DNA of 64,000 bases from an uncultured Bradymonadales bacterium (GCA_964503485.1 CAZDBH010000002.1:508-64507), one strand, 5' to 3'; positions 32,874-51,300 are shown, counted from the stretch's first letter. The notes: generated from the letters alone by a model not told the origin. Translations and numbers: made by a program.

Positions 32874-34835
32874 ATGTCCCGGCCCAAGGGGCTACTTGAA
32901 TATGTCGTGGTTTTTGAGAACGGACGACGTTCCGACCCGCTATCTCTGTCTACTCTCAGAGAGATGATATCCGGAGGCCTCATTGGTGAGGGCGACCGGG
33001 TCTCGAAGGACGGCTCCGAGGCATCTGAGTACTACCTGTTCGATGAACTCGTCGACCTGTGGGATGTCGAATCCGCGACCTTCGATATTGGTGGAGATCC
33101 CCGCGACGACGGGCCCATCCTGGCAAGTATCAGGACAGCTTCCTCTCCGCCACCCGTGCCGAGCAGGCAACCGGCCCCGCAGAGTCCCCAGGAAGAAGAC
33201 GAAGGCAGCACCTCGAACCTGGGAGTTCGGGCCGCACAGGACGTATTGACTGCGAGTCTCGGAGTCGAGTCCGGTGAGCCCCTGCCAGCCGAGACCGCGG
33301 CACTTCTGGACGACATTGCTTCGATGTTGGAATTCGAGATCGCAGATCTCGGCTCGGCACCCGCAGCGCCGCCAGTACAACCCGTCAGCCCGGCGCCGCT
33401 GCCCGCACCACCAGGTTTTGCTGGCTACGACGCCCTGTCGGATGATCTACTCGACCCGGTCACGATTCGTGACCTTCTGTTTGACGCATCGCTCTACACG
33501 GCACTGGCCGTCTCCTACGAAGCCACCGAACAAGAGCTGAACGAGGCCTATCTCACACGCGCCGAGCTGATCGCTCAGCGTCAACGAGTCATGACGACCA
33601 AGGACATCGACCAGGTCGCGGCCCTCGAAGATATTAGGCGCCTGATTTTCCAATCCTTCGAGTTTCTTCGCAACGACGCAAAGCGGACCGCCTATGATCG
33701 TGCAGGCCAGCGCTCGGGTTCTTTCAAACCGTCAGCCCAGGAGTTGGGGCTGACCAGAATGGACCCAGACTCGCAAGAGTTCAGGACCACTGGCACCTTC
33801 TCGAGCGCGAGCAGAATGGCGCTCAAAAACCGCACCAAGGGCGACATCACGCAGCGCCTCAAGCAGTTCACGACCGCCAGCTTGCCGCAGGTCAATCGCT
33901 CTCGTTTGAGCGGTTCGATGCCTGCCCTGAGATCGATCGATGATCCACTGCTCGGGCAAAACGCGGGGCCGCGAGTTTACACCGCGCCGCACAAGGCCCT
34001 CGAGTCGGGTGAGCTGTCCACCATCGGGCTGAGTGACGCCAAACTCTTCAAGGGTGAAGTACCCACCGACGCACGCGAGCGGGAAGAGCGGTCGAAAACC
34101 TCCGACAAGCCGAGGGCACACCGCCGCACCTTCGAAGCGCTTGATATCACCGGCGAGCAAGATGCTGTCCAGTGGGGTTCCCTAAGCCACCAGAGGGGGA
34201 CCGGCTTTCTACAGGCCGCACTCCTGACAGTCGGGCTTTGCCTTATCTCGATTGTGGTCGTCCTCACCACCGAATTGGGTGCGAACGAATTCGACTACAA
34301 CGGCCCCACCGAGTGGTTCTACGGCAGAAATGGGCTTCTGATCGTGGGGGCGATCCTCGCACTGATCGCACTCCGGAAGGAGTCCCCAATCGCACTCGGT
34401 TTTCGGCCTGCCATACTCTTTTCGATCCTGGCCGTGATGATCGGAGTCGCCCTCGGCTTTGTTGGCTCATTTGTAGCCCCGATTCGGATTGCCGAACCAA
34501 AACCGCTCTTAATCATGGGCGTCATCCTGCTCCAGGCCGTGGCTCACGAAACCTACTTCCGCGGCTTTGTGACCCGAGTACTACTCCTCGAAATGAAGAG
34601 CCCAATGGTGGCGGTTTTCACAAGCTGCTTCTTCTACGGTGTGTTCTATCTGACCTTCAGAAACGTCATGGTCCAAGAGGGTTTCTGGCGCATCTACTAC
34701 AGCCTCTTGCTCTACGGCTTCGGGCTGGGCGGTGTCTACGGATGGCTCTACTACAAGTCGAAGAGCGTCTGGCCGAGCTTCCTCGCTCATTTCCTGACCA
34801 TCATGGTCACGTTCCTCACCTCTAGAGTAGCTTGA
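32874..34835 (+). CDS. Multi-domain membrane protein: N-terminal DUF4339/GYF-like domain, a degenerate J-domain-like segment (no HPD), Pro-rich linker, and a C-terminal CPBP (CAAX-protease/Abi-like) intramembrane metalloprotease domain.
   Basis: C-terminal TM region with HETYFRGFV (EExxxR-like CPBP motif 1), FYGVFYLTFRN, and HFLTIM (HxxxN/D-type motif). The N-terminus VVFENGRRSDPLSLSTLREMISGG resembles DUF4339. 653 aa. Confidence 0.5.
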   Translation: MSRPKGLLEYVVVFENGRRSDPLSLSTLREMISGGLIGEGDRVSKDGSEASEYYLFDELVDLWDVESATFDIGGDPRDDGPILASIRTASSPPPVPSRQPAPQSPQEEDEGSTSNLGVRAAQDVLTASLGVESGEPLPAETAALLDDIASMLEFEIADLGSAPAAPPVQPVSPAPLPAPPGFAGYDALSDDLLDPVTIRDLLFDASLYTALAVSYEATEQELNEAYLTRAELIAQRQRVMTTKDIDQVAALEDIRRLIFQSFEFLRNDAKRTAYDRAGQRSGSFKPSAQELGLTRMDPDSQEFRTTGTFSSASRMALKNRTKGDITQRLKQFTTASLPQVNRSRLSGSMPALRSIDDPLLGQNAGPRVYTAPHKALESGELSTIGLSDAKLFKGEVPTDAREREERSKTSDKPRAHRRTFEALDITGEQDAVQWGSLSHQRGTGFLQAALLTVGLCLISIVVVLTTELGANEFDYNGPTEWFYGRNGLLIVGAILALIALRKESPIALGFRPAILFSILAVMIGVALGFVGSFVAPIRIAEPKPLLIMGVILLQAVAHETYFRGFVTRVLLLEMKSPMVAVFTSCFFYGVFYLTFRNVMVQEGFWRIYYSLLLYGFGLGGVYGWLYYKSKSVWPSFLAHFLTIMVTFLTSRVA

Positions 34836-34838
34836 GTC

Positions 34839-35165
34839 GTGCGCAAGTCGGGCTGGGTACTTCCGACGTTGCTACTGATTCCTCTACTGGCCTGGTCATG
34901 GCGCCAGCTGCGCTCAGACCAGCCGCCCTTGACCTTCACAACCGCCAGTATGCAAGTCGAACTGGGAACCAAAGAGCCGCAACCCGGCCTGCTCCAGTGT
35001 ACTCCCAGCGACGAGGTGCTCAGCACAGAGCTGGCGGCGCTACAATACGTCCACTTCTCAGGGCAGCCATGCGCCGAAGATAGGGGCACGCATGTGCTCG
35101 AAGAGTGGCTCGGTGGCAGGTTGCTCTGGAGTCCTGGCAATACGATACGAGTCGAGAGATGGTAA
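34839..35165 (+). CDS. Possible small secreted protein (GTG start).
   Basis: 108-aa ORF in the gap between the CPBP gene and lnt, with a hydrophobic N-terminus (WVLPTLLLIPLLAWSW). No similarity recognised. May be spurious. Confidence 0.25.
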   Translation: MRKSGWVLPTLLLIPLLAWSWRQLRSDQPPLTFTTASMQVELGTKEPQPGLLQCTPSDEVLSTELAALQYVHFSGQPCAEDRGTHVLEEWLGGRLLWSPGNTIRVERW

Positions 35166-36637
35166 GCCGTCTTCTGTGGGCCAGCATTGCCGGAATCCTA
35201 TTTGCCCAAGCCTACCTCCACTCGGCCCCCTTCGCTCTGGCCGGTGCAGTCGCTCTGGGACTTGCGCTGAGGCCTCCCTTCGACCGGAATTGGCGACGGC
35301 AGATAGCGAGAGTCTTCATCGTTCAACAAATCTGGATCGCCCTGCACGGTTGGGGGTTCCTGCACTACGGCTGGAGGCTATATGTCGCCACGCTCTTCTA
35401 CTTCGCGCTTTCCGGCGCCCTGCTGTCGATTCTGGTGATCGGTTTCGCCCGCAGGCCTCGGGTAGGCCCGCTGCGGGTGGCCGCAGCTTGGATGACGGTG
35501 GAAGCGCTCCACCAGGTCGGATCCTTCGGCTTCCCGCTTTTTTTGGGCGGGACCCAAATCGAAATGCCGTGGCGCACCTCGATGGGCGTTATCGGGGCTG
35601 TCGGCCTGAGTGGTCTGATTATCGGGTTGGGCGTCGCTGCCACCCGTGCTCGCATGTCGGCCCTTCGCTGGGCAGCAGCCCTCGTTGTGTTTTCACTCTT
35701 GGGTCTGTGGCAGCCCGGGATAGAAGAGGTTGGCGAATCACAGGATGTAGCGATTGTTCAGGGCGGTGTCCCCAGTTGGTTCTACCAGATCGTGGATGAC
35801 TCGGAAGCGGCTGCCTATCTTGTCGAGGACCACTATTTCGGGCTCGCCGAAGAGGCATTTGTCGGCGGTCCTGATCTCGTCCTGCTACCCGAAGCTGCAC
35901 TCCACCACGCAATTGCCCAAACTGGTGACTATTCGGTTGATCCATTGTTTCGAGCCTCGGACAACCCAGAGAACGCAACGACCCAGCTTTTGACTGGAGC
36001 CTATCGAGAGACCTGGGTCGGAGACGATCTGCGCCTCTACAACTCGGCCCTCCTGCTCGATGCGTCAGACAGCCGGCACCTAATCGCTGTGGTCGACAAG
36101 CGTCTGCTGGCCCCCGTCGTCGAGTCCCTGTTTACGCCAGGAACCGGTGATGGTCTGGTCGAGGCCCGCGCTATGACGATCGGCGTGCTCATCTGCTTCG
36201 AATCGATCTATCCCAGAATGGGCAGGCAAGTTGCGGAATCGGCGAGCGTGGTAGCGATTCTCACCAACGACGCGGGCTTTGTACGAGCTCCAGTGAGCCT
36301 CACGCACGCCCGCCAGGGTTGGAGCCGAGCGATCGAACTGGGACGGCCGATCGTACGCTCTGCCCAAGCAGGTATCTCCTTCATCGTCGACCACCGGGGA
36401 CAGATCCAGGCCCAGCTCGACTTCTTCGAGCAAGGTGTTCTGCGTGGAACGGTTCAACCCACCACTGGCTGGACCTGGTTTACCCTCTTCGGCTTCATGC
36501 TCGCGCCGGTTGCGGGGTTACTACTCTGCCTCTTCATCGTTCTGGGTGACCGCCGGTTTGGAAAGCCCGCGGCGGTAGAGCCAGCCGAGGAGGCCAAGGA
36601 TGAGGGCGTAGCCGACAAGGAAACTGGCGTACCCTGA
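35162..36637 (+). CDS. lnt: Apolipoprotein N-acyltransferase (Lnt).
   Basis: N-terminal polytopic membrane region followed by a CN-hydrolase (nitrilase) domain with the catalytic-Cys context IGVLICFESIYP. Length ~490-510 aa. The start is ambiguous (35105 or 35162). Confidence 0.7.
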   Translation, partial: VSRLLWASIAGILFAQAYLHSAPFALAGAVALGLALRPPFDRNWRRQIARVFIVQQIWIALHGWGFLHYGWRLYVATLFYFALSGALLSILVIGFARRPRVGPLRVAAAWMTVEALHQVGSFGFPLFLGGTQIEMPWRTSMGVIGAVGLSGLIIGLGVAATRARMSALRWAAALVVFSLLGLWQPGIEEVGESQDVAIVQGGVPSWFYQIVDDSEAAAYLVEDHYFGLAEEAFVGGPDLVLLPEAALHHAIAQTGDYSVDPLFRASDNPENATTQLLTGAYRETWVGDDLRLYNSALLLDASDSRHLIAVVDKRLLAPVVESLFTPGTGDGLVEARAMTIGVLICFESIYPRMGRQVAESASVVAILTNDAGFVRAPVSLTHARQGWSRAIELGRPIVRSAQAGISFIVDHRGQIQAQLDFFEQGVLRGTVQPTTGWTWFTLFGFMLAPVAGLLLCLFIVLGDRRFGKPAAVEPAEEAKDEGVADKETGVP

Positions 36638-37378
36638 GACGTTGTGCATCGGACCCATCGCAAGCTCGCTGCCTCCGTGCTCACCCAGAGTCGAAATCGT
36701 GGCGATTCGAGTGCCGTTCACAAGCAGTGAGAAGGGCAGGGCCAGAACAACCAGAACCAGAAGTTGGCGCTCGCGAATCCGGAAAATTAGACCGAGAAGC
36801 AAGGTGTACAACGACAGTGCTGCCAACGTGTTGACCCCACTGCATGTCTCATCGACTAGGTTGTAGAAGGTAGGGGTGAGTATCAGGAGGTCTTGCTTTT
36901 GTACCTCGAAACCGAGGACCGTCAACCACACACAGGCCACGTTCGCCGACAAGTGTTGCAGCATCAGCTCGAATCGGGCCATCCATCCTGTAGTTAGAGG
37001 CGCCATCAAAATGAGTGGCGTGAGCGGCAGTAGGTAACGCCCGAGCAGTTCGCGTCCGCCGACTAGCCCAACAGCTGCCCCGACGGTGAGCCAAAACCCC
37101 ACAGCCCCGACGATCGGTTCATCCAACACCCAGGCGAGGCAGTTGACGCACAGGGCCAGTAACGTTGCGACGACAAGGACGTGCGAGGAGGTGCGTGAGC
37201 GGGTTCGGTCGTCGTCGGTTCGAAAACGGATCCAACAGGCGACGCCGGCGATAATCGGCATCATTGCGCTGAACGAAACGTCGATGAGTTCGTTGCTTCG
37301 CCACCAACCGAGGAGGTCTGTCAGGAATGGGACAGTCGAAGCGATGAGGACTACTGCGAAGGCGAGCCGGCGCATCAT
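36521..37378 (-). CDS. Exosortase/archaeosortase-family transpeptidase-like membrane protein.
   Basis: 8-TM-type protein of 285 aa with the family's catalytic-Cys motif (DETCSGVNTLAALS), an NxxR motif (LLVNGTRIATI) and a downstream His (GEHGG). It starts 11 bp after the stop of the 1365-aa gene, so the two are co-transcribed. Its 3' end overlaps lnt by ~117 nt. Confidence 0.6.
   Translation of the reverse strand: MMRRLAFAVVLIASTVPFLTDLLGWWRSNELIDVSFSAMMPIIAGVACWIRFRTDDDRTRSRTSSHVLVVATLLALCVNCLAWVLDEPIVGAVGFWLTVGAAVGLVGGRELLGRYLLPLTPLILMAPLTTGWMARFELMLQHLSANVACVWLTVLGFEVQKQDLLILTPTFYNLVDETCSGVNTLAALSLYTLLLGLIFRIRERQLLVLVVLALPFSLLVNGTRIATISTLGEHGGSELAMGPMHNVSGYASFLVGYALILGLLGWLYRRGLSKPAVTQNDEEAE
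36550..36575. other. Imperfect palindrome ccgccgg-tttggaaag-cccgcggcgg inside the lnt / exosortase convergent 3' overlap (possible bidirectional terminator, or a sign that one gene end is mis-called).
   Basis: Seen directly. Both convergent ORFs read through it. Confidence 0.3.
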
Positions 37379-37389
37379 CCTCTCTCGCG

Positions 37390-40300
37390 TTAGTCAGCGC
37401 ACTCGCAGCTGTCGCTGCAGCTGCTGCACTCCCCAATATGGCCCGTATCACAGTCTTCGTTTACAGACCAAAGAACCTGGCCGGCCTTCGACTCGTCCTC
37501 TCCTTCACCCGAAGTCACTGCGCCGACTGTTCCACCGCAGGCATCGTCATTGATGAAGATCTTGTAATACGGGTTCGGGAAGCCGCCGCCATACGGATAC
37601 TGGCGTACCCGCACTTGGTAGTCGCCCGCCGGCAGGTCATAGAAAGCGAATTCACGGCCCGGGAAGTCCGCGACCGATCGCGACACCTGAGTCTCGCAGA
37701 CGTAGTGGTCGCTCTCTGGGTCCAATTCGGGCAGACAGGGGCAGTCCTCGTCCGCCGGGAAACCACACTCGTAAACAGTCTGGTCAATCCCATCCCGCAA
37801 CGGATCGGGATACAGTAGGGCAATCGCCTGGCCTGCTTCATCGAAGTGCCTGAGGTACAGTTCGATGTCGCCGCCTTCGGTGGTGAATGAGAACCAGTCA
37901 TCTTTGTCCCAGCTACAGAGCGAGCCCACGTGATCAGACGCGGAAGTTCCCGGCTCTAGAACACAGGTCTCGTCAGTACAACCGAGGTCGTTTGGTCCGG
38001 GATAGCGATCCCAATCTTCGGGCGTCAAATCCCACGGATCGTAACGTTCCGGCGGTGGACAGTCTCGCCCGCCCGCGCCGTTTACCTCGACCAAGATGTC
38101 GTAATCGGCCCCAGCCACGAGACTTCCCGCGTCGACCGTAAGCCGGTAGGTCGCTACAATCTTGCCCGCTGGGGCGTTGGCTGTCCCGTCGATGAGGATG
38201 TCGTAACAGGTGTTCGCTGACTCGCAAGCCGGTGTCACATCGACCCCGTACCGGAATTGATCGGAGCCTTCTCGGCCGAAGAAGACTTCGACTTTCTCGG
38301 CGTTATCCTCGGCGTCATCGCCGTTCATTCGAACGCGCACTGTATACCGGTCACCTTCGAGAAAACGTAGGTGGTAGACGTCTTCGTCGGAGGGACAAAT
38401 CACGAGATTATCAGCCGGCAAACATTCGCAGAACGCCGTGTCGTCGGTACCGCAGGTCGTCGTGAGGAACTCGCCGCAGCCGTCGCCCCAACCAGCCAAC
38501 AACGTGGCTCGGTGAAGCAGTTCTGGATGCTCGGAGTCGTTGGGCTCGAGTTCGTCATCCTCACAGGGCGTTTCAATGTAGTCGATCGTCAACGAGTAGG
38601 ACTCGCCGAGTACCGGGATGAGTTCATCATCGTCCGGGTTGCTGCTGGCGACCCGCACGAAATAGATGGCTGCTTCCCCGTCGACTGTGCCGCCCACTCG
38701 TTCGTAGATGGGTTCGTCGGTCAGAAGCACACCACTGGGCAGACCGGTTGTATCCATCTCGACCAACTCCCGATCCTCCCCGTCGAGTACCCATTCGTAG
38801 ATGGTCATTTCGAGGGCGTCGTCTTCCTGGAAGAGGGAGGCTTGCAGGAACCCTTCTGATGGGGCCCGGAAAATCTGGACCAGATAGAAATCCTCATCTA
38901 GATCCACGGAATCATCGACTACTGCTGGGCAGATGCGCGCTTCCTCGAAGGACGCGGTGGCAGGCCGACTCGGGATGATGAACTTGCTATCGGTCGGCAA
39001 GTCCTGGGCATTTTCTGGGGTATTGTTGTGTCGGTCGGCACCCAGCGCGATGCTATCATAGTAGTCTCGTTCACAGCGCGCCGTTCCCATCCCGCTCTCG
39101 AACCGAAAGGTGTAGGCCGCTTCTGCGCTCCCTCCGGGGATTTGCATACGGAAGTAGTACTCATCGGTGGCAGCCACGGACCGGTCCAGAATCCGGTCGT
39201 CTGTGTCGTCCAAGTCGGCCGGATTGTCCCAGGCGCCGGCAGAAACGATGGAGTCGGCTTCCAAATCGACACCCCCATCTGTACCCAAGTCCATTTGTAT
39301 TCCGGGATGACCGTCACGCGAATCAGTGACCGCTGTCAGGGTTTGACCGGCAAAGAGCACCATGCTGAAGAAGTCCACGTCGCCCGTGCACATGGTGAGG
39401 TCGGTGAAACTGCGGTCGACCAGGCGGCCGGCTGAGCCCAGAGGTGTAGCAGAAATCGTGCTGTTGTTCACCTCGAGAGGGTCTGCTTCGCAGAGGAACG
39501 GGCGGTCGAGCAGCACTTCGAGTGAGTAGTCGACGCACTCGAGACCGACCGTGAAGACTTGAACGAAATAGAGTTCGCTTTCGGGCACGAGGTAATCGTT
39601 AACCTGAACGTCGGTCGGTACTTCGGAATCGGTCGGTCGGAACACCACGTCCCCACCGTTGTTGAAAAAGGACATCGCTATGAAGCCCTCCGATTGCGCG
39701 TGCACCGATATGCGGTCGCCGGCGTTGAGATACATGACGTAGTGGTCGAAATCGGCGCCGGTTGACGCGGTAGCATCGGCACACCAGCTGTCCTCAGTGT
39801 CGTCACATGGCCTCAGATCAGTTGAGCCGGTGCAGTCCCGGAAGCTGACCACGGCGTCGCCAGAGTAGAATGGAATACAGGTAGCCGTAGAGCGGGTATC
39901 GTCGCGAATCACGTCCGTCTCGAGGGCATCGAGACACCCGCTCTGGCATCGGCCGGTGAGTGGATTGCAGGATTGACCGTCCGGGCAACTGTCCTCGGTT
40001 TCGTCGCTCTCTGGCGTACAGTCGACTTCACATTCTGGGGTCGAACAATGCGTACCCAGCGGGCACTCCTCATCTGCGACGCAGCCGCACTGATCTGTCG
40101 CGACCGAGCAAACCTGCCCGTCGGGGCAGTGGCACTCGTCGCCGTCACAGCCAGGTATGCAGCGCTGCAGTGTCGGTGAGCAGAATTCGCCAAGCGGACA
40201 CTCGTCGCAGGCTCCGTCCGGGTCGCAGCGCGGGATCCCGCAGTCACGGGTTTCGGGATCGCATATGAGTTCGTCGAAACAGGTGTCCTCGTCGGCCTCT

Positions 40301-41487
40301 GTTTCCGGATCGTCCGGTAAGCAGCCGTCCTCACAAAACTCACCGTTGCAGTACAACCCGTTGTAGTCGCCGCCATCCCAACAGTCTTCGTCAGTGGCGC
40401 ACTCCTCAGCGCAGCACACATGATCGGGGCAGCAGTGGGTGTCCTTTCCGCACTCGCCCGGTTTACAGCCCGGCGAGCAGACCGGATTGTCGAGCTCCAG
40501 GTCGCAGTACGTTCCGAACGGGCAATCCGCGTCTCCGTGGCAGCCGTCGATACAGGTGTGCGTGGCCAGATCGCACAGCGTCCCGGGCCGACAGGTATCT
40601 GACCCATCGTTGCGGATTCGGCATCCAGGCTGGCACGTCTCGGTCGACTCCTCGCAGTAGAACGCGCTGATCCTCCCGTCGTCGTTGCAAAACGCATCAC
40701 ACGTTTCTGGATCGTCGTCTTCGGCGCAGGTGCACGGTGTCGCCTCACAGGAGTGCGACTCTGTGTCGCATTGCAGGCCGCTACCACAATTGTCCGGTTC
40801 GCTTCGGCAGCCCTCTAGGCAGACGTCCAAATCAGGATCGCAATAGAAGCCCTCTAGGCAGATTTCGTCACCGCGGCAGGCACTACCCTGGCATCGTCGA
40901 GAGACCTCGTCGCAGACTAAGGGCACCTCCCCAACGGGCGCGATTGGGCAGTTATTGGGCTCAATCCGGCAGCCTTCCTCACAGCCCGACTCAGGATCGC
41001 AGTATTGGTGATCCTCGCAGTCGTCATCTTCTTCACAACCAGCAACGCATTCCCTCGAGTTTGGGCTACAGTGAAAATCGTCTTCGCAGGTATTGGGATA
41101 GAGGTCGCAGTCACCGCAGTTGTCGGGATCGACCCGACAACCGGGCTCGCACTCTCCGTCGTCGCAGTATTGACCCGCGGCGCAATCTTCGTTCTCCGTC
41201 GCGTCGGTGCAGCCCGATCGTTCGTCCACGGTGTCAGGAGTTACGTCTACATCGCCCGAGTCAGGAATATCCATGTCCCCCGCGTCGGTCGGTGGGCGAA
41301 CACACAAACCAGCGTCGTCACAAACAAACGGTGCCGAGCAGTTGCATTCGAAGCCCGCGTCGTTGGTTGGCGGAGTATCGCAGTCGCAGGCCTGGAACCA
41401 AGCTAACGTGAGCGGGATGGCGAGGACCAGGAATCGGGCCCTGATCTGTTCGGATACCGAACGGGATCCGTCTCGTCGCATGTGCAC
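37390..41487 (-). CDS. Giant (1365 aa) secreted Cys-rich repeat protein: ~10 N-terminal Cys-rich modules (C..GCR…C..G..CD) followed by multiple PPC (pre-peptidase C-terminal)-like beta-sandwich domains.
   Basis: Signal peptide (LVLAIPLTLAWFQAC). Repeats such as EGCRIEPNNCPIAP, EGCRSEPDNCGSGLQCD, PGCRIRNDGSDTCRPGTLCD. C-terminal half with DxD(F/W/Y)(F/Y) PPC signatures (GDVDFFSMVLFAGQTLT, DEDFYLVQIF, KDDWFSFTTEGGDIELYL). Confidence 0.7.
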   Translation of the reverse strand: MHMRRDGSRSVSEQIRARFLVLAIPLTLAWFQACDCDTPPTNDAGFECNCSAPFVCDDAGLCVRPPTDAGDMDIPDSGDVDVTPDTVDERSGCTDATENEDCAAGQYCDDGECEPGCRVDPDNCGDCDLYPNTCEDDFHCSPNSRECVAGCEEDDDCEDHQYCDPESGCEEGCRIEPNNCPIAPVGEVPLVCDEVSRRCQGSACRGDEICLEGFYCDPDLDVCLEGCRSEPDNCGSGLQCDTESHSCEATPCTCAEDDDPETCDAFCNDDGRISAFYCEESTETCQPGCRIRNDGSDTCRPGTLCDLATHTCIDGCHGDADCPFGTYCDLELDNPVCSPGCKPGECGKDTHCCPDHVCCAEECATDEDCWDGGDYNGLYCNGEFCEDGCLPDDPETEADEDTCFDELICDPETRDCGIPRCDPDGACDECPLGEFCSPTLQRCIPGCDGDECHCPDGQVCSVATDQCGCVADEECPLGTHCSTPECEVDCTPESDETEDSCPDGQSCNPLTGRCQSGCLDALETDVIRDDTRSTATCIPFYSGDAVVSFRDCTGSTDLRPCDDTEDSWCADATASTGADFDHYVMYLNAGDRISVHAQSEGFIAMSFFNNGGDVVFRPTDSEVPTDVQVNDYLVPESELYFVQVFTVGLECVDYSLEVLLDRPFLCEADPLEVNNSTISATPLGSAGRLVDRSFTDLTMCTGDVDFFSMVLFAGQTLTAVTDSRDGHPGIQMDLGTDGGVDLEADSIVSAGAWDNPADLDDTDDRILDRSVAATDEYYFRMQIPGGSAEAAYTFRFESGMGTARCERDYYDSIALGADRHNNTPENAQDLPTDSKFIIPSRPATASFEEARICPAVVDDSVDLDEDFYLVQIFRAPSEGFLQASLFQEDDALEMTIYEWVLDGEDRELVEMDTTGLPSGVLLTDEPIYERVGGTVDGEAAIYFVRVASSNPDDDELIPVLGESYSLTIDYIETPCEDDELEPNDSEHPELLHRATLLAGWGDGCGEFLTTTCGTDDTAFCECLPADNLVICPSDEDVYHLRFLEGDRYTVRVRMNGDDAEDNAEKVEVFFGREGSDQFRYGVDVTPACESANTCYDILIDGTANAPAGKIVATYRLTVDAGSLVAGADYDILVEVNGAGGRDCPPPERYDPWDLTPEDWDRYPGPNDLGCTDETCVLEPGTSASDHVGSLCSWDKDDWFSFTTEGGDIELYLRHFDEAGQAIALLYPDPLRDGIDQTVYECGFPADEDCPCLPELDPESDHYVCETQVSRSVADFPGREFAFYDLPAGDYQVRVRQYPYGGGFPNPYYKIFINDDACGGTVGAVTSGEGEDESKAGQVLWSVNEDCDTGHIGECSSCSDSCECAD

Positions 41488-41571: not shown

Positions 41572-43137
41572 CTAAGGCCCGGTTGTTCCCGGTACCCGAT
41601 CGAGAGGTTGAGGCGCAGTAGGCTCCGGCATGTCCGGTTGAATAGAACGCACAAGTGGAAGAGTGTCCCACTGGATTCGTCCGTTGCGGACCCAGCCCAG
41701 TAGCACGTTTTCTGCACCGGCCGGATTGGAACAGATGGCCCTCGTACGAGCAGCGACAACCACGTGTGGATGGTCCATCGACTCGAGGTCGTCGCTCCAG
41801 GTCACAGAGTACGAATACCGGACCGAACTCGGCCGGAATGAGAGCAATTCCCAGCCGTTTTCTGACCAGCTGTCCTCTGTGGCGCGGGGTCTAGATATGC
41901 ACGGTGTGATGGCGGGCGTTCGAGGAAGCGACAGTTGGATTCCCCGCGAAAAGGCCTCGCCGACCGCTTGGCTCAACTCCAACAACAGTGCTTCGCCTTC
42001 AGACTCTTGTATCCACTTGATTCGATTGGCAATCGCGTTACCGAGTAAACTACCGACCATCATCGAGGTCACCTCGACCGAGGGTGATGCTGTGAACGTC
42101 GGCCCTCGAGCGCCAACACTCGCGACCATCCCCTCAAAGTACCTGAGGTCGTGTGGGTCCGCATTGCTCGCGACCACATCAGGAAACGCCGTCGCAGTCG
42201 CTGACGCTACGCTAGCCTCTGAAAACACGGCGTGGAGTGTCAGGTTCAAGACGTTTTCTGACGGAATCGTCCCACTCAGTTCGACCAATCGCGCCCGTTC
42301 CGAGGCCAAGAGAATGACGCCGACAGGCGCAAGCCGTTCACCGCTGTCCAAGAGGTGCACTGGTAGGTCCGGATCGAGAGCTTGGCCGAGGACGGATCGG
42401 TTGGCCAAAGTCCCACTCGAGGCTTGTTCCGCCCACTCGAGGATTCGACGCTCCCCGTCTGGCGCCACCCCGCGGCCCACGACGAGGAACTCCCCTCGAA
42501 GAATGAACACGCCGTTTCCGTAGAACTGCATTTCCGGAATATCACCCAACACGGGGTGAGCGACCTGCGGGGCATCCGGAAGCCAACCTGCTGTCGAGTA
42601 GTCACCTTGGCAGGCAAAAATCGACTCGCCGCCGCCCGCACCGAAGGCGCACGCTTCACTTGCCTCTAGAAACGGCGTGAAGTGTTCATCCAGAAACGCC
42701 AAATTGGCAGGAGTGAAAGACACGGGGTTGTTGTAGCGAAAGACCTCCTGCCAAGAATCATGAACTGACTCCATCTGAAGGACGCTGAGGTGAAAGTAAA
42801 GGGCGGACTCGCACACCTCGGGCAGAAAGCCGAGCAACGGAGCGCCCTGCCCGCTCGCCTGGAACAAGGTGCCGGCCGCCCCTTCGGGCATTTCTGCGAC
42901 CGGAATCTCCAGCTCGAAGTAGGCGGAGATGGGTGAAGGTTCTACGTCTTCCTCTGGCGTGACCGTGGGCTCCGCGTGCTCAGGGGCGGGCTCACTGGTG
43001 GTGGCTGCCGGGGCGACTGCCGGAGTCGGTTCCGGCTCTCCAGTCCCGCTCTGCTCCGTATCTTCCGCTGATCCGCATCCGAACGTGCCGACAAGACACA
43101 CGGTGATCATCGCTGTGAACGCTATTCTAACTGCCAT
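41572..43137 (-). CDS. Hypothetical lipoprotein.
   Basis: Probable start MAVRIAFTAMITVCLVGTFGCGSAED (lipobox). Pro/Glu/Thr-rich linker, then a ~450-aa domain with no recognised motifs. The track start 43179 would overlap the divergent neighbour. Confidence 0.5.
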   Translation of the reverse strand: MAVRIAFTAMITVCLVGTFGCGSAEDTEQSGTGEPEPTPAVAPAATTSEPAPEHAEPTVTPEEDVEPSPISAYFELEIPVAEMPEGAAGTLFQASGQGAPLLGFLPEVCESALYFHLSVLQMESVHDSWQEVFRYNNPVSFTPANLAFLDEHFTPFLEASEACAFGAGGGESIFACQGDYSTAGWLPDAPQVAHPVLGDIPEMQFYGNGVFILRGEFLVVGRGVAPDGERRILEWAEQASSGTLANRSVLGQALDPDLPVHLLDSGERLAPVGVILLASERARLVELSGTIPSENVLNLTLHAVFSEASVASATATAFPDVVASNADPHDLRYFEGMVASVGARGPTFTASPSVEVTSMMVGSLLGNAIANRIKWIQESEGEALLLELSQAVGEAFSRGIQLSLPRTPAITPCISRPRATEDSWSENGWELLSFRPSSVRYSYSVTWSDDLESMDHPHVVVAARTRAICSNPAGAENVLLGWVRNGRIQWDTLPLVRSIQPDMPEPTAPQPLDRVPGTTGP

Positions 43138-43238
43138 ATGAGTCTCCCAACGGACCGAGGCGACTCTACCATTTGTCATCCCAAAGTGAAGACGGATTTG
43201 AAGCGGTTGAGTTCAACGTCTACAATCGGGGCTCCATG

Positions 43239-45308
43239 TTGTGGCAACAAAAATCTCGCTACATTGCTTGCGTCACAGCGGCCCTGCTCGTTGGATGCTC
43301 GAGTCAGAACGAGATCTCCTCGGACCAATCCGACAGTTCAGCTGTGGTAGACTCGACCGACACGGCCCAACAGACCGATACCGAGCCAACCGATTCGTCA
43401 GCTGCTGACCTAGTCGCCCAAGATACCTCCGACGCATTGAGTTCGGACGCTGCTGAGGATCCCATCCTCACTGACCGGACCCAATTGGATAGGGACTCAG
43501 ACGGCGCGCTGGATCGACGACAAGACAGCGAACTGCACAATGTCGACCAACCGGATGCGTCAGCGGAACTCGATACTCCCGTCGACAGCGGCCCGGATGT
43601 CATTTCGGAGTTCGACATCCCGTCGGATCCGGATATCACGACCGATCCTGTGGATGGTCAAGACCCCGTGCTCGACCAGGACCTCGAATCAGACACCCCC
43701 GATCTCGCCGACGAGGACGTTCGGCCACCTATCGATTGCCCCGAGTCAGACTGGGAGGTGCAGTTCCAAGACCGCACCGACGAGGTCGGGCTTGCACCAT
43801 GGTCGACCAGAGGTCAGCCCCTCGGAGCCGTTGTCGTCCTAGACGTCAATGGCGACATCTACCCTGACCTGTTTTCGCCTTCGGACGGGGAGGTCGCTCA
43901 CCTGTACATCAATCAAGGTAGCTGGACATTCGTCGAAGCAACCGAAGGAAGTGGAATCGAAGACATCGCGCTCGGCGAGTTTGCCGCCGCGAGAGACTTC
44001 GATAATGACGGCATAACCGATCTGTTCGTATCAGCCGGGTGGCGAGACTACATCTTCCTCGGGGACGGGGAGGGCCATTTCGAGGATGTCAGTTCCGAGT
44101 GGGGCTTGGGCGCTTCTGTCGCGAGTCGGGAAGCGTTGGCTGTGGCCGATTTTGACGGCAATGGCTGGCTGGACGTCTACGAGAGCCGTGGAACGGTTCC
44201 TGTCTCGACTACCGGGAAAGCAGACCGGATTTTCTTCAACCAAGACGGCTATTTCACAGCCCAACTCCTCGATGCGATGGGCCACCCCAAAGCTGCCGCC
44301 GCTGTCGACTGGGACAGGGACGGTTGGGTCGACTTGTTCATCGGCAACGACTTCGGCTGGATTCTCGAAGGCAATGCGCTCTTGCGAAACCTCGGTGAAG
44401 CAGACGAGGAAGGTGATTGGCGCTTCGAAAACGTGGCATCCGAGTGGGATGTTGCCCAAGAACTCGCGAGCATGAGCGCCACCGTGGCCGACTTCGACAA
44501 CGACGGGGACCTAGACGCCTACGTAACCAATATGTGCGACAACCTCTTGCTGGTCTCCGAGGATGGCGTCGCCGTGGACCGTGCCCGCGAGTTTGGTGTG
44601 AACGCGGGGTACTTCTCCGATCCAGACCCACCCGAGCCCGAGCCCAACTGGCCTGAAGTCGATGAGGGCCGCACGCTGTTTTTCGAAACGTACTGCAGAG
44701 ACCGTGGACCTGACGACTGGGTCCTCACCAGCTGGGCCTCGGTCTTTGCCGATTTTGACCAGGACGGTTGGCAAGAACTCTTCGTAGCAAACGGAAACCT
44801 CGGGCATTCCTACGGCTATCCGGACGGCACGGCGCAGCCAAACCTGCTCTTCAGAAACCGCTGCGGCCAAGCCTTCGAGCCCGTGGTTTCCGAGTGGCCC
44901 GACCTCCGAGCGCCCTCCAGAGGTGCTGTCGTCGCCGACTTCGACGTTGACGGAGACCTCGATCTAGTTTGGGTCGAAGCTGGTCATGGTTCCGACAGAG
45001 GCCTACGCTTTTTGTCGAACGAAAGCGTCGCGGGAAACTGGTTGAAACTCGAGCTCGAGGCGACGAGCACCCATCCTTCGGCGATCGGCACCAGTGTCAC
45101 CCTCGCCAGCGGGTCAATCGAACAATACCGGCAACTCGATGGCGGCCAAGGGTACTTGGGGCAGCATGAGGCGATCGTGCATTTCGGATTGGCAGACGTC
45201 ACCGCAGCTGACACGATCACAATCCGCTGGCCTAGCGGTCGGACCCAGGTCCTCGAAGGGGTCGATGCGAATCAAACGCTCCGTTTGGTCGAACCAGCAG
45301 TCGAGTGA
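43239..45308 (+). CDS. CRTAC1-family protein: FG-GAP/VCBS beta-propeller repeats with a C-terminal ASPIC/UnbV domain; lipoprotein.
   Basis: Lipobox (AALLVGCSSQ). Repeated FDNDG…D, FDGNGWLDVY, DRDGWVDLFIGND, DQDGWQELFVANGN FG-GAP-type Ca-binding repeats. C-terminal NWLKLELEATSTHPSAIGTSVTL…RQLDGGQGYLGQHEAIVHFGL matches the UnbV_ASPIC signature. Confidence 0.7.
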   Translation: MWQQKSRYIACVTAALLVGCSSQNEISSDQSDSSAVVDSTDTAQQTDTEPTDSSAADLVAQDTSDALSSDAAEDPILTDRTQLDRDSDGALDRRQDSELHNVDQPDASAELDTPVDSGPDVISEFDIPSDPDITTDPVDGQDPVLDQDLESDTPDLADEDVRPPIDCPESDWEVQFQDRTDEVGLAPWSTRGQPLGAVVVLDVNGDIYPDLFSPSDGEVAHLYINQGSWTFVEATEGSGIEDIALGEFAAARDFDNDGITDLFVSAGWRDYIFLGDGEGHFEDVSSEWGLGASVASREALAVADFDGNGWLDVYESRGTVPVSTTGKADRIFFNQDGYFTAQLLDAMGHPKAAAAVDWDRDGWVDLFIGNDFGWILEGNALLRNLGEADEEGDWRFENVASEWDVAQELASMSATVADFDNDGDLDAYVTNMCDNLLLVSEDGVAVDRAREFGVNAGYFSDPDPPEPEPNWPEVDEGRTLFFETYCRDRGPDDWVLTSWASVFADFDQDGWQELFVANGNLGHSYGYPDGTAQPNLLFRNRCGQAFEPVVSEWPDLRAPSRGAVVADFDVDGDLDLVWVEAGHGSDRGLRFLSNESVAGNWLKLELEATSTHPSAIGTSVTLASGSIEQYRQLDGGQGYLGQHEAIVHFGLADVTAADTITIRWPSGRTQVLEGVDANQTLRLVEPAVE

Positions 45309-45333: not shown

Positions 45334-48300
45334 CTAGAGGCAGCTGGGACAGCGAGGTATCGGAGCGAATTGGTACTCAAAAGGCTGATCCGCGTCCGAC
45401 GCGATGTGGACATAGATAGTCCGTTCGTCGGAGCCGGCGTTGATTTCGGGGGTGCGAATTCGTTTGTTTTCGACCACCGCTGTCTCATCGGTGACTGTCG
45501 CCAGAACTGTGCCGTCAGAATCGACGATCTCGAACACGAAGTCAGGTAATGGGTCGGTACTGCTCGGTTCGAAGTCGAAGGACAGATTCCAGTCGCCGCC
45601 CCTAGGCGGCGGAACGGTATAGGCCAACCAATCCTCATCCGTCCCTGTCGGGCACATGGCGAAGGCACCGCCTTGCCAGTTGATTTCGTAGGCTGTCCCA
45701 CGTGTGTCGTTCGCTCCCTCAGGAACGTCCGACGGGTCGATGAAACACTCGTCCTGGCTGACCCGCATGCAGTAATCGGTTGTGTCGCCGCCTTCGAGCT
45801 GAAAGTCGTACGTTCCAGCCTCTACGTAGCCCTCCATCACAATCTCGTCGACCTGGAACGATGCCATTTCGACTGCGGGGACAACGTCGCCGTCCTGCAG
45901 GACTCGGACAGATAAGTTGGAGAGGTCGTCCCCAGTAATAATGAGCCGTAGGATGCCGTCGTCGACGGTCACGCTGTAGAAATCCGAGTTGTCAGGACAG
46001 CGATTTGAGCACACGTCCTCCTCGTCGAGGACGAGCTCCACAGCGTCCTCGATCTCGTGATTGTCGCGCTCCGAGACGCACATGGGCGCCGCACTGGCCA
46101 GCAGAGTATAGTCCACCGGTTCGCCGAACTCTTCGTCGAGCGACGCGACCACATAGTAAACCGTCTCGCTCGGATAGGCTCCGACGGCCAGTTTCATCGG
46201 CATGAAGCGCGTGTCGTTAATCTGGGCGAGGACCTCGCTGTCGCTGTCGTAGATCGCGACCCGAAAGCGTGCCGCACGCTGAGCTAGACTCGCCTCGGTC
46301 GCCAAATCCCAACTCTCGTCCAGGAACTTGATTCCCAGCCCAGGCCCGCACGGGGGCTCTGAATCCTCTTCGCACCGGAAGCAGTCCGGGTCGCCACTAT
46401 CCGGATCACAGGTCACTACGGGCCCGACTGACGTCTGAAGCTGGAAGATATCCCTGTCCCCCGGGCACAACCGGAAAGCGTTCGGCTCACCGCTCTCGAC
46501 GTCGCGACGCAGCGCCACGTCGCCGTCGATCGGGTCGTCGAATGAATCGGGGCCACCTTCAAATTCATCGTTTTCGCACAGCGGTAGTTCTTCGATGGCC
46601 AACTGGTATGGCAGGCCGATCGATCCCACGTCTTCTTCACTCGAAACCCTCAGGTAATAGGTGTAGGCGTCTTCCGTGGAATTGGAAACCGCAAGTTGGC
46701 CCGGCGGAGTGTCGCCCGAAACGGTCACGTACCGCAGCTCAGTCTCGTCGGATGTGTGGAGGCATGCGACGAGCTCCGTCGGATTGCCTGTTGCGCCTTC
46801 GATCGTGACGAGCAACCCGGTCGTCGTCTCCAGAGTAAGGTAATCTTGTTCGTCCTGACAGATTCTAAACTCGCCGACAGTACCATCAAACGGTAACGGG
46901 TCGCCGGACCGGTCACTTGGCACCGAAGCGCCAGCGAAGCTCTCGTTCGGTTCCGACGTATCGTTGATGCATCCGCGCTCTTCCCTCTCGATGGTGAGTT
47001 GGTAGTCGGCGCCTTCGGAGTCGATGACGCCATCGGCCGAGACCTGGATGAGATAGGTTCCGGGGGACAATTCTGGCGCAAACAAGGTAACACCCTCACC
47101 GGAATCGCTGGTGTCCGACAGGGCCCCATCACAGGTCCAGGCCCCACTGCTGCCCGTGACGTCGCTCCCGGTGCAGCCTGCAACCGCAGTGGAACCGTCG
47201 GCCTCGTAGAGGTCGACCTGGAAACTGGCTCCCGATTCGGAACTCAGCCCAATGTAAATCTCGCCATCGGTCGACACGATTTCCTGGGAGTACCAATCGG
47301 ATTGAGCCGGGCAGAGATTGGCGCCATGGGCACCGCTGGACAGCGCAAATGGCTCAGACTTGGTGTCGTTCGGTTCAAACCCATCATCGATACACGGCGA
47401 GTCGTCCGACAGCGTATGCCACAACTTGTAGCGCAAACCGTCATCGCCAACACTAGCCGATACCCACACATAGTAGGTCGCAACCGGTAGATTGAAGGTC
47501 CAGAACCCCATGAAACCCAGGCTGCCCTCCACAAAGGAGTTTTCTGCCACTAAAACTCCGTCGCCGTCGAGCACGACGACCCGCACTGGGTTGTCCCCGG
47601 GGCTGTGCTGAATGCTGACACTCAGGTTTTGGCCCTCGACGGTGTTCACCACCCGATAGACGTCGACGTCGCCTGGGCAAAGGACTTGTGCACGCGAGTC
47701 GGACCGCTCTGGAATCAGCGGCAGACCTTCACCGATGCTGTCGTTGGGCTCGAACGGATCGAGGACGCACCCGTCGCTTTCACTGCTGATGCTCAAAACG
47801 TACGCTCTGCCCCGTTTCGGTGCGGCCGTCGTCGTCACTTGAACGTAGTAGGTACCCGCCGCCAAACTATTGAGAGACACCTCGCTTCCGTCGTCACCCA
47901 GTTCCTCCTCGGCGCCGTCCAATAACGTGATTGTGAATGGCCCTGGGTCGATCGGAGTCAAACTGGCGGTTATCGCCACCGGGCCGAGTGGGACCTCGAT
48001 TTTGTAGACATCAGCGTCCTCACAGGCCAGAGCGGCCAATGACGCCGTCGACTCCCCGAGAACTGTCGCAGTCGCGGGTGTGTCATTGCCCCCCTCTCCT
48101 TCGTATTGGTCGGTACAATCGAAAGGCTCATCGACAACGATTGACAGCGAGTAGTTTTCGCCGAGCTCGGATGGGTCAGTGGCTGTCACCCGAACGTAGA
48201 ACGTGCCGGGGTCGAGCTCGGTCTCAGATAGGCTAATCAGCGCGCCGCTTCCTGTCTGGCTGCTAATCTCGGTGCCGTCGTCTTCGAGAAACTCGAGTCG

Positions 48301-51300
48301 CATCGATACTGACGGAGCGACTCGACTGACAGACAGATCCAAACTGGCGGGACCTTCACCGACGATGACTTCGAAAACGTCGCTATCACCTTCGCAGGCG
48401 GTCAGGTTGAGAAACCCGGATTCGGCGCCCAGGAAGTCGCTGGCGGTCTCGATGGTGTCGTTGTCTTCGAGAGAGTCGGTGCATTCCAGCCGCCCGATTT
48501 CAACCGATAGCGAATAGGCGATTCCTGCAACAGGAATTCCGTCGCTCCCCGAAACGTGAACTGAGTAAACCCCACCGATCAGATCCGCCATGGCGAGGGT
48601 CTTGTCTGCATTGGTGTCCGTCACAGGCCCGGCAACTGTCTCGCCCTCAGAGTTTAGAATCACGAGTGTAAGTGGTGCCGAGGTGTCTGACTGGTGAATC
48701 GAGACCGTCACGTCCTTGGTGCCAATCACGTCGAAAGCGAACCAGTCGTCGTCTGCCTCGCAGAGCGACAAGGGCACATCCACGTCGCCAGCGATGTAGA
48801 CCGCCTGTTCAGCACTCTCGTTGGGCTCCAGGCGGTCACGGCATTCAGTGACCACCTCTGAAGTCGCGAGCAGAGTGAATGGCAGTCCGTTGATCGGGGC
48901 AGTCGCCTCGGGTTCGACCTTCAGCAGGGCCATGCCCTCCCAGGCCGACGATCGTACGATGACGGTGCTGCTGTCGCTCGTGGAATCTTGCGCGATCCAA
49001 ACCAGGTCTTCGCCGTCCAGCTGATAGAGCGTCAACTCGAGGTCGGCGGTCGCTCCGGTGTTGTCCAGAGTGAAACTGAACACCCGCTCGTCATCGACGG
49101 GTAAGATGTACCACAACTCGTGGCCGTCACAGACCTTTCCGGTGGTCGTTCGATCGAGGACTAGGCTCTGTGCGAATCCAGACTCACTGTTGGACGAAGG
49201 CTGACAGACATCGACGCTGCTCAAGATCACATCGAACCCGTAGGCGTCCCCCAGCTCCTCGGTCGACTCGTTGGAGTCAATCTCGATGATCACCGCTTGC
49301 CCCGTAAGGAAGTCACCCTCGACGATGCCCGACCCGTTCTGATTGTCGCGTAACACCAGGTCGTCTTCATCGCCGTCTGGGGGGAGCTCGTAGAGACGCA
49401 CTGCGCCTGATGCGCCGTCTTCGAATCTGACGTCCACCTCGACATGAGTCGGGCCACCGAGGCTGACCCACCAGTGATCGTTGTCTTCGGGGCACAGCCG
49501 CTCACAGAAGTAGGCTGGGTCGTCGGGCGATTCCGCATCGCACAGAGTTTCGGGCAGGACGGCCCAAGAGAACTCGAAGCCATTGTTGGGCTCTCGGCCC
49601 TCGTCGATGCATTCGACGTCATCCAGAGCCAGACGCGCAGTCAGTTGATACGTCGCCCCACCCAGAACCGGAATGAAACCGGTCTGTCGAACGCGAAGAT
49701 AGTAGAAACCCGCGGTCATGCGTTCATCGACGATACTGACCGCGCTTGCCGTACGAACACACTCCGACCCTCGGATGCACTGCTTGACCAACTCGAGCTC
49801 GCCGCCGTCTGTTTCGCGCAGAAGGTCCAGACCGAAGGAACTGGCAAAAAGCACCGGATTGACGGTTACGTTCAGAGTCGCGTCACGCCGGACCTCGAAC
49901 CGATAGTAGTCGACGTCTTCGACGCAAAGGACCGCGTCATCGCCACTGTCGAAAGTGGATGAACCGCTCAGAATCGAGGTGGCATCGTCCGACACGTCGT
50001 TCTCCTCGAATCCGTCAGTGCAGCGTGGCGTGGCGAATTGGAAGTCGATGTCGTAGTCCACGCCCTCGACATCCGCCCCATCGAGGCAGTCGAGGTTGGT
50101 GACCTGCACAGCATAGGAGCCGCTATCGAGCAGTCCCTCTACTTCGAGCTCCTTCGATGGGTGACTATTCTCAACCGTTTGAAGCGCCTCGCCGCTCGGG
50201 GCAAAGAGAGTGAGGCGAAGGGTGCAGGCCGCCGAGGACTGCTCGAAACTCACCCGGAGGTCGCCTCCAGTGATTCCCTGAGTGACGAACCAGTCCTCAT
50301 CATCTTGGCACGCCGTCAGGCCGTCGAAACTCTCTCCCGACTCCGCAAAAGTCGCACTCTCACGCTCATTGTCGGGCTCCAAGTCGTCGTCTGGGCAGGA
50401 GCCAAATCGGCTGTCCGTCCGGTAGAGTTCGTAGCCGCTCTCGTCTGACGAGGAGTGTCCCCTCACGGCCACGTACCAGGTCGATTCTTCCGAGGTCGGG
50501 CCCGCAAAGATCAGTTCCGTCTGCTCCCCGCTATCTACCCGGTCGACCTCGCTCCGGGTTTCGTCGTAGAGGATCAAGTCGAGGTTTTCCCCGGCTTCGG
50601 CGATGAAGAGGGTGATCTCAACCCGTTCGTCAGGCGCGACGTCGAAGATCCAGTAGTCAGTATCGTCTGCGCAGAGGGTGAGGCCCCGGGTCGGGCCGTC
50701 CTCGAGTCGCCTCGATTGACCGAACGAGTTGTTCTCTTCGTACTCGTCAGGTCGGCACTCATGCGACGGATAGCGCTCTACCCGGGTGTTGTACCCGACT
50801 TGTGAGCATCCCTGGTCATCGGTAATGCCCGCTCCGAAAATCGAGATATAGTACGTGCCGTCCACCGTGACCGGGTAGGCAATCTGAAGGAACTGGCCCG
50901 GTCCATCGATGGTCTCGTGGTGCTCGACGAGCGGTAAGCCATCCCAATTGGGACTATCATGAAGTTGAACGGTAATCTCACCTCGGTCGGGGGTCACCAG
51001 GACGTTTAGGGTCTCGCCGGCATTTCCAACCACGCGGTATCGGTCGATATCGGCGCCACACAACACGCCGAAGAAGAGGCTTTCAGAAGAGGGCGCGACT
51101 GTGTCGCCATCATCGATATCGGCCTCGTCGAAGCACTCGCAGTCGACGCAACGCCCGTTCTCTGGGTTACACATCGGCAGGTCGAAGAGTTCACAGTCGA
51201 CGTTCCGATCGCAGCTCGCCACGCAATGCTCGTCGACACAAACTAGGTCTTCGAGACCCGCACAGCTGAAGTCCGATTCACACCGGCAGCTCCGAGTCGT

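Follow-up and report, generated by a model that had tools for sequence, protein, structure and literature searches.

Several described sorting systems are close to the one considered here. Exosortase A/EpsH (XrtA, TIGR03109) serves many PEP-CTERM proteins (TIGR02595), and XrtV is the cognate enzyme of the PEPxxWA-CTERM proteins, the two models bearing consecutive accessions (NF035943/NF035944). In XrtE, the enzyme of the VPEID-CTERM system, exosortase and CPBP protease are fused, which sets a precedent for a functional link between exosortases and CPBP/Rce1-like proteases. The myxosortases (MrtX/MrtC/MrtP), which belong to the CPBP family, have MYXO-CTERM clients such as TraA. Exosortases are defined by a putative Cys/Arg/His triad and their clients by a tripartite signal composed of a motif, a transmembrane (TM) segment, and an Arg cluster; dedicated one-enzyme/one-client systems are usually encoded by adjacent genes, and the acceptor of exosortases, as well as the question of whether they are one-step transpeptidases, is still unknown (Haft 2023, bioRxiv 10.1101/2023.06.07.544157). 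Here we describe an exosortase-family gene in a 64,000-nucleotide (nt) stretch of DNA, hereafter the window, from an uncultured Bradymonadales bacterium (GCA_964503485.1 CAZDBH010000002.1:508-64507), where it follows a gene for a giant, predicted Cys-rich lipoprotein. The product is probably a canonical exosortase of a new subfamily, with a client of the PEP-CTERM type encoded elsewhere in this genome and with the giant lipoprotein as an operon neighbor.

The gene (36521-37378, minus strand) codes for a protein of 285 amino acids (aa), hereafter Xrt. The Pfam family Exosortase_EpsH (PF09721) covers it end to end with 131.2 bits (cutoff 25.7, E=5.5e-38), and it passes the NCBIfam exosortase/archaeosortase signature TIGR04178 (57.3 bits, cutoff 23). 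Its putative catalytic triad is formed by Cys179 in a TCSG motif, Arg224 in an NGTR motif (Asn221-Gly-Thr-Arg224), and His245. In an alignment of 11 clade members, which are 37-71% identical to the window protein and represent both of the locus types described below, Cys179, Asn221-x-x-Arg224, and His245 are invariant; the 31 invariant columns include the whole triad and the TCSG and NGxRIA motifs. Seven hydrophobic segments found by a simple Kyte-Doolittle scan (mean of at least 1.6 over 19 residues) mark the protein as polytopic, in line with the roughly eight TM helices of the family. The first-pass annotation of this DNA had recognized an exosortase from the Cys, the NxxR Arg, and the downstream His, and had proposed a topology prediction and a profile search for an uncharacterized clade; the family matches, the conserved triad, and the hydropathy profile all uphold the assignment, and the clade proves to lie outside the named subfamilies. 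The best-scoring named model is XrtA, with 87.5 bits against a cutoff of 208, and XrtD (85.2 against 400), XrtW (84.9 against 425), XrtV (68.3 against 313), and the general 8TM_EpsH model TIGR02602 (78.3 against 105.55) likewise stay under threshold. No subfamily cutoff is reached among the NCBIfam models for XrtA, B, C, D, J, N, O, T, V, and W, CrtA and CrtC, and TIGR02602.

An exhaustive HMMER search of 1.84 billion cluster representatives recovered 2186 relatives at E<=1e-3 and only 10 at E<=1e-30, after which the score drops from 127 to 95 bits; thus, the clade is small and sharply bounded. It was delimited by this search instead of a word-indexed protein search, which returned three proteins. 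A profile scan of genome contigs with the clade alignment found a single locus, in a Bradymonadales metagenome-assembled genome (MAG); the corresponding scan of metagenome contigs gave zero matches, and a search of the PDB yielded no solved structure for any relative. The named members are annotated merely as “exosortase/archaeosortase family protein.” The 285-aa protein is an exosortase of an unnamed subfamily, found only in MAGs labeled Bradymonadales or Myxococcales. Judging from the full-length open reading frames (ORFs) and the 31 invariant columns, triad included, that persist in nine divergent lineages sharing the arrangement seen in the window, the enzyme is apparently still active.

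The clade comprises about 12 lineages, and the contigs of its members, which were fetched for comparison, present two kinds of locus. Type A is made up of the window and eight further lineages: P0002 (L005-L008), P0004 (L010-L012), P0005 (L013), P0006 (L014), P0007, P0008 (L021), P0009 (L016, from a Bradymonadales MAG), and P0011 (L022, L023). Here, a co-directional gene for a giant protein of about 1290-1420 aa lies directly upstream of Xrt; the protein is Cys-rich wherever its sequence was read, P0007 being judged from the gene table. The two genes are separated by -8, -4, -4, 11, 11, 15, 34, and 67 nt, and by 266 nt in P0007. Type B, represented by three lineages with locus context (L009, L015, and L017-L020), has no giant protein upstream; at this position, a divergent gene for a mini protein of 66-69 aa lies about 65-85 nt from the Xrt start and is followed by an Amidase_3 gene. 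Neither the mini gene nor the Amidase_3 gene is present at the window locus or anywhere else in the window, and no Type A locus has the mini gene. On its other side, Xrt has the same neighbors in both types: a convergent gene for an apolipoprotein N-acyltransferase of the Lnt family, before which come a gene for a membrane protein of about 110 aa and, before this one, a gene for a CPBP protease. The CPBP orthologues (570-980 aa) occur at every sufficiently long locus of both types, and only L013 is without Lnt at the usual position. In a neighbor-joining tree, the three Type B enzymes form one branch, which the Type A lineages, including the deepest (P0008), surround.

The mini proteins of Type B have the makeup of exosortase clients. 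All four (P0153-P0156) consist of a signal peptide ending in AFA, 11-16 further residues, a G-S-S-P-E-P motif, a hydrophobic helix, and an Arg/Lys-rich end. P0154 passes the PEP_CTERM model TIGR02595 (17.1 bits, cutoff 16), P0153 and P0155 match both the PEPxxWA-CTERM and PEP_CTERM models below cutoff, and P0156 has no match. The same plan recurs outside the clade. The nearest outgroup enzyme, P0013, is 31-32% identical to the window Xrt and is encoded on two MAG contigs in a string of genes running in one direction (L024, 6745-12094; L025, 1755-7042), which encodes, in this order, a 68-aa mini protein, Xrt, a protein of 179 aa, an Lnt homologue of 537 aa, and a CPBP protein, with an Amidase_3 gene directly upstream as in Type B. 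The Lnt and CPBP proteins of this string are homologous to those of the window, down to the same N-terminal region in the latter, and the Amidase_3 protein is homologous to that of L017. The outgroup mini protein reads MNRRVLAWVTTVMIFAPSMAWA-GGPNAD-SPEP-SFWIFLLMGAIPAVWLVV-RHNRQ… and scores 48 bits against a profile hidden Markov model of the Type B mini proteins; its mature part amounts to only about 6-10 residues (GGPNADSPE). Read directly from their sequences, the mini proteins of Type B and of the outgroup thus both display an N-terminal signal peptide together with the complete tripartite signal; overall, their Sec signal peptide is followed by 6-16 mature residues, the S-P-E-P motif, a TM helix with GAIPA, and an Arg-rich end. 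Since the outgroup loci have the mini client, Xrt, Lnt, CPBP, and Amidase_3, Type B is taken as the ancestral state, and the Type A arrangement of the window is best read as derived. This suggests that the mini client, Xrt, Lnt, and CPBP form an old association, which Type B would have retained, and that the subfamily originally had a dedicated mini client of the canonical PEP-CTERM kind. The partners of Xrt that remain constant are Lnt and CPBP.

The giant protein that adjoins Xrt in the window (37390-41487, minus strand) is a predicted Cys-rich lipoprotein with a 1365-aa ORF, called as 1363 aa from the start MRRDG. Its stop codon and the Xrt start codon are separated by 11 nt (TAA CGCGAGAGAGG ATG), within which a purine-rich, Shine-Dalgarno-like stretch, GAGAGAGG, directly precedes the ATG. 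Both ORFs and their spacing are as first annotated; the translational coupling proposed at the same time was deduced from that spacing, and the orthologue spacings of -8, -4, -4, 11, 15, 34, and 67 nt lend it support. The signal peptide ends in a lipobox-like WFQA-C34, for which orthologues have LAA-C (L010) and NPG-C (L016). Cys accounts for 110 residues, or 8.1% of the protein; Cys-rich repeats span about residues 90-520 and are followed by four or five beta-rich modules with a D-x-D-[WFY]-[FY] motif. The C-terminus, ...GECSSCSDSCECAD, had been quoted correctly, as had the ...PIPRCPSCL end of the 2283-aa protein farther upstream. It forms a terminal six-Cys knot ending in CECAD, and the tail C-x-[DG]-G-x-W-S-x-x-E-[ED]-C … C … C-x-x-C-x-C-[DE]-stop is kept in eight lineages. 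The first-pass annotation had also placed PPC domains in this protein, which proved incorrect: PF04151 is absent at E<=1 from the whole sequence and from five overlapping pieces, and no other Pfam or NCBIfam domain was found. PPC domains occur only in the 2283-aa protein, to whose region adjoining the PPC matches residues 593-734 of the giant protein bear a weak resemblance (blastp E=3e-4).

As a sorting signal, the tail of the giant protein fails the tripartite test, because a TM helix, a PEP motif, and a basic end are all missing. Neither in this protein nor in the 2283-aa protein was a PEP motif or a hydrophobic segment past the signal peptide detected, and neither matches TIGR02595 or any other NCBIfam model of this kind, their tails ending in CECAD and RCPSCL. 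Rather, the tail looks like the terminal disulfide-locked module of an N-terminally lipid-anchored surface protein. A single-sequence structure model of its C-terminal 216 aa (37393-38040, minus strand) was unusable (mean predicted local distance difference test score 36.6). A word-indexed protein search with the same segment returned nothing, not even the protein itself, although the gene exists on ENA contigs (L002), which probably reflects a limitation of the index; a metagenome-contig scan with the alignment of the giant-protein C-termini gave zero matches. A likeness between the mature N-termini of the giant lipoprotein (C-DCDTPPTND) and the mini clients (A-DPPPADT) was set aside as a low-complexity coincidence.

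The window itself offers no client. Six-frame scans of all 64 kb for a hydrophobic stretch and a basic cluster near a stop codon revealed no credible sorting tail on any gene, and an internal tripartite signal, as in some ArtA substrates, is absent from the 1365-, 2283-, 535-, and 711-aa proteins. The initial statement that no large secreted protein of the window carries a PEP-CTERM tail therefore agrees with the scans; it had, however, overlooked an ORF for a secreted protein of at least 3767 aa (signal peptide MSHFLRRLISVLAVVGVVCGFVPLATA), which extends on the plus strand from 52697 past 64000. The C-terminus of this ORF lies beyond the window and may carry a sorting tail. The ORF is rich in Gly (15%) and also in Thr, Asp, and Asn, is divergently oriented to the 2283-aa gene, and has no Pfam or NCBIfam match. 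Of the two options put forward in the first-pass annotation, a cargo encoded elsewhere is favored by the mini PEP-CTERM genes adjacent to Xrt in Type B and the outgroup; the other, a sorting signal in the Cys-dense C-terminus, is unsupported, as there is neither a TM helix nor a basic cluster.

We therefore favor the view that Xrt still has a PEP-CTERM-type client in this genome. The protein would be a polytopic inner-membrane endopeptidase or transpeptidase of the Cys/Arg/His type, whose ancestral dedicated client would have been a mini protein of 66-69 aa with a classical tripartite signal, and it would belong to a conserved envelope module with the Lnt-family acyltransferase, the small membrane protein, and the CPBP protease. 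In Type A, the mini-client and Amidase_3 genes would have left the locus; Xrt is now bordered by a set of three lipoprotein genes (2283, 535, and 1365 aa), which, to judge from the arrangement, is probably co-transcribed with it. Most likely, the enzyme of the window would still cleave its client at a PEP-CTERM-type signal, the client gene lying beyond the 64 kb at hand. Candidates are a mini protein that has moved elsewhere or some different protein, perhaps the product of the ORF of at least 3767 aa. The 1365-aa protein would be an N-terminally lipid-anchored operon neighbor, its Cys-rich end serving as a structural disulfide knot. The alignment agrees with a retained specificity: among the residues conserved in Type B, none is different in Type A, and hence nothing in the enzyme suggests that its specificity has been altered.

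Several observations weigh against this view. No Type A genome yielded a PEP-CTERM client, either within the 64 kb of the window or within about 20 kb around three further Type A loci. When 5.8 billion proteins were searched with the mini-protein profile through a word index, the four clusters recovered were three linked to Type B and one on a context-free contig of 609 nt. The junction of the giant lipoprotein and Xrt genes is tight (-8 to +67 nt) in nine lineages, the Xrt proteins of which are 34-48% identical to that of the window or to one another (71% for the closest, P0002). The extreme C-terminus is among the most conserved parts of the giant protein; such a pattern would also be expected of a dedicated client. 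Lastly, the Lnt of the module may be either the housekeeping copy or a module-specific paralogue. The negative evidence concerning the client nonetheless carries little weight, because only the 64 kb of the window and about 20 kb around three Type A loci were inspected, because the mini-protein search was insensitive enough to miss a genuine 68-aa homologue in L024, and because the ORF of at least 3767 aa extends out of view.

The constancy of the partner genes raises an alternative, in our estimate unlikely, in which the module serves no protein cargo. The exosortase, the acyltransferase, the CPBP protease, and the small membrane protein would together constitute an envelope-modification pathway, its product being either a processed mini peptide, such as a lipid-linked or N-acylated oligopeptide, or a general step of lipoprotein maturation; in Type A, the shared substrates of Xrt, Lnt, and CPBP would be lipoproteins, for instance those of the three upstream genes. 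The Xrt-Lnt-CPBP association is indeed kept from the co-directional operon of the outgroup to both locus types, the mature mini clients have only 6-16 residues, a lipobox is present in the products of the three upstream genes and of several more in the window, and LolC/E-like, PBP1A, TatC, OmpA, and FadL genes in the neighborhood point to an envelope-biogenesis setting. Against this, the acyltransferase of the window (35105-36637, plus strand; 510-aa ORF, called as 492 aa; TIGR00546, PF00795, and PF20154) may simply be the housekeeping enzyme, its TIGR00546 score of 131.4 bits being just under the equivalog cutoff of 132.9; its translation contains LPEAAL, DKRLLAP, and ICFES motifs, which would correspond to a nitrilase-type Glu/Lys/Cys triad. 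In the clade of interest, moreover, Lnt is convergent with Xrt and is not co-transcribed with it, L013 is without Lnt at this position, and there is no biochemical precedent for such a pathway, the searched literature giving no functional link between exosortases and Lnt. Any functional connection of Xrt with Lnt and CPBP is putative.

The genes on this side of Xrt have some further peculiarities. The 3' ends of the convergent Lnt and Xrt genes share 117 nt in the window (36521-36637) and 60-120 nt in ten lineages, with the overlap also seen at L005, L009, L010, L014-L017, L021, and L022; the overlapping tails of the two proteins are poorly conserved, charged cytoplasmic extensions. The small membrane-anchored protein (34839-35165, plus strand; 108 aa in the window and about 110 aa in relatives) has no family match. 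Its gene always lies between those of CPBP and Lnt, with overlapping start and stop codons, and in the window it overlaps the Lnt start. Its N-terminal TM helix is accompanied by two invariant Cys residues and a W-x-P-G motif, as established from an alignment of six lineages of both locus types. The gene is called as only 71 aa on some contigs; this protein of 71 or 108 aa was considered as a hidden client and ruled out by its N-terminal anchor and the absence of a C-terminal TM helix. The CPBP/Rce1-like intramembrane protease (32874-34835, plus strand; 653 aa; PF02517, 46.8 bits) has an N-terminal cytoplasmic region of about 440 aa that is conserved in the orthologues and the outgroup, and its motif 1 is H-E-x-x-F-R-G, where E-E-x-x-x-R is usual. 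The myxosortase models MrtP and MrtX do not match it, and NCBIfam gives only weak matches to ABC_perm_CPBP and MrtS.

A second alternative, which we regard as improbable, is a switch of client, whereby the Type A enzyme has adopted the co-transcribed giant lipoprotein and recognizes its terminal six-Cys knot (…W-S-x-x-E-E-C…C-x-C-[DE]-COOH) in place of a TM helix and an Arg cluster. The consecutive order of the two genes with tiny gaps or overlaps in nine lineages would be expected of such a pair, given that dedicated systems typically place the enzyme beside its client; so would the lack of a mini client at any Type A locus and the strong conservation of a tail that always occupies the extreme C-terminus. 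However, without a hydrophobic segment or a basic cluster, nothing would hold the scissile bond at a membrane-embedded active site, and the absence of any Type B-conserved residue that differs in Type A speaks against a changed recognition. In one of seven giant-protein orthologues, the C-terminal region shows a weak match (E=0.0012) to TIGR02232, a Cys-rich acidic repeat common in myxobacteria, the C-terminal module is found in no other protein of the window, and the synteny of L005 and L010 with the window exceeds 20 kb on both sides, so that the adjacency of the two genes may mirror descent rather than function. The CxC[DE] knot is not supported as a sorting signal. A more elaborate form of the same idea, in which Xrt dropped the mini client and matures the 1365-aa lipoprotein via this knot, and in which Lnt and CPBP might take part by analogy with CaaX processing by Rce1, appears somewhat more doubtful still. 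That the Type A enzyme is a functionless or decaying relic of client loss, kept only by its position, is very improbable even though no client could be detected in the window or around other Type A loci, for the ORFs are intact and full-length in nine divergent lineages, all 31 invariant columns with the triad, TCSG, and NGxRIA persist, and the tight operon-like junction has been maintained.

Upstream of the giant lipoprotein, the remainder of the syntenic three-gene set consists of a predicted lipoprotein of 535 aa with the lipobox LVGTFG-C (41572-43179, minus strand) and a Cys-rich predicted lipoprotein of 2283 aa with the lipobox LAAAS-C (45334-52185, minus strand), which are its middle and first genes, respectively. 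The former has no family match and has orthologues of 502-543 aa at the matching position in L005 and L010. The latter has PPC-type domains (PF04151, E=1.8e-14), carries no sorting tail, is paralogous to the 1365-aa protein over the Cys-rich N-terminal part (blastp E=2e-24), and has orthologues of 2293-2296 aa in L005 and L010. Predicted lipoproteins and secreted Cys-containing proteins are dense in this part of the genome: besides these two, they are encoded at 18145-20724 and 20866-22668 on the minus strand and at 43173-45308 on the plus strand. Several such proteins of the window end in Cys and an acidic residue (…GTCRE, …EEGCE, …CECAD), which may be a lineage habit of disulfide-locking C-termini and not a signal. 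A rhomboid-family protease (PF01694; 7587-8504, plus strand) scores 54.7 bits against the rhombosortase model TIGR03902, under its cutoff of 84. At 24146-27484 on the minus strand, beside the gene for a TPR protein, lies a gene for a 1112-aa protein that joins a Ser/Thr kinase to an AAA_16 (STAND-type) ATPase; the gene is syntenic in L005 and L010 and is of a type typical of Myxococcota-like genomes. Rfam and tRNA scans of the window were empty, and a promoter and terminator scan was indistinguishable from shuffled controls.

The system is unusually small, with one enzyme and one client of 66-69 aa whose mature part has 6-16 residues, and this makes it tractable for a search for the acceptor by mass spectrometry; the repeated linkage to Lnt and CPBP hints that lipid chemistry is involved. 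The window offers a natural experiment, in which the client gene is gone and a giant lipoprotein is in its place, on whether an exosortase can persist without an adjacent client or switch to another. If the reading favored here, with a PEP-CTERM-type client elsewhere in the genome, is true, annotation would gain models for a new Xrt subfamily and for a new variant of PEP-CTERM. In the literature we searched, exosortases and Lnt are mentioned together only for archaeal cell surfaces or lipoproteins, not for bacterial exosortases, and exosortase mentions for Bradymonadales concern only the CPBP myxosortase MrtP. Nor does that literature describe a dedicated mini client with an SPEPxAW-type motif, a conserved association in which an exosortase is accompanied by an acyltransferase of the Lnt family, a protease of the CPBP type, and a membrane protein of about 110 aa, or the replacement of a client by a giant lipoprotein operon as in Type A.

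Set against the known systems, the subfamily combines features of several. It recalls the myxosortases in its Myxococcota/Bradymonadales hosts, in the Cys-rich surface proteins, which in that system are the clients, and in the presence of a CPBP protein in the same neighborhood. The sorting enzyme here, in contrast, is an exosortase, the CPBP protein matches neither MrtP nor MrtX, and the giant protein is without the TM helix and Arg tail of MYXO-CTERM clients. From XrtE it differs in that Xrt and CPBP are separate genes and in the long cytoplasmic N-terminal region of the CPBP protein; the XrtE model is not among the NCBIfam matches to the window Xrt at E<=0.01. With XrtA it shares the fold family, a length of about 260-290 aa, multiple TM segments, and the Cys/Arg/His signature region, and the clients of the sister and outgroup loci carry the P-E-P motif, TM helix, and Arg cluster of the XrtA/PEP-CTERM system. 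Unlike XrtA, to whose model it scores far under the cutoff, the window Xrt has no exopolysaccharide biosynthesis locus, EpsI, or PrsK/PrsR around it, the many PEP-CTERM proteins of XrtA contrast with the one tiny dedicated client of this subfamily, itself not visible in the window, and the conserved partners are Lnt and CPBP. Dedicated systems, such as XrtV with PEPxxWA-CTERM and other lettered Xrt subfamilies of NCBIfam, provide a further comparison: the window Xrt is likewise well below the XrtV cutoff and its locus is without a client of that kind, but in Type B and the outgroup a single client adjoins the enzyme, and the client motif SPEPxAW resembles PEPxxWA (14.6-14.9 bits, sub-threshold).

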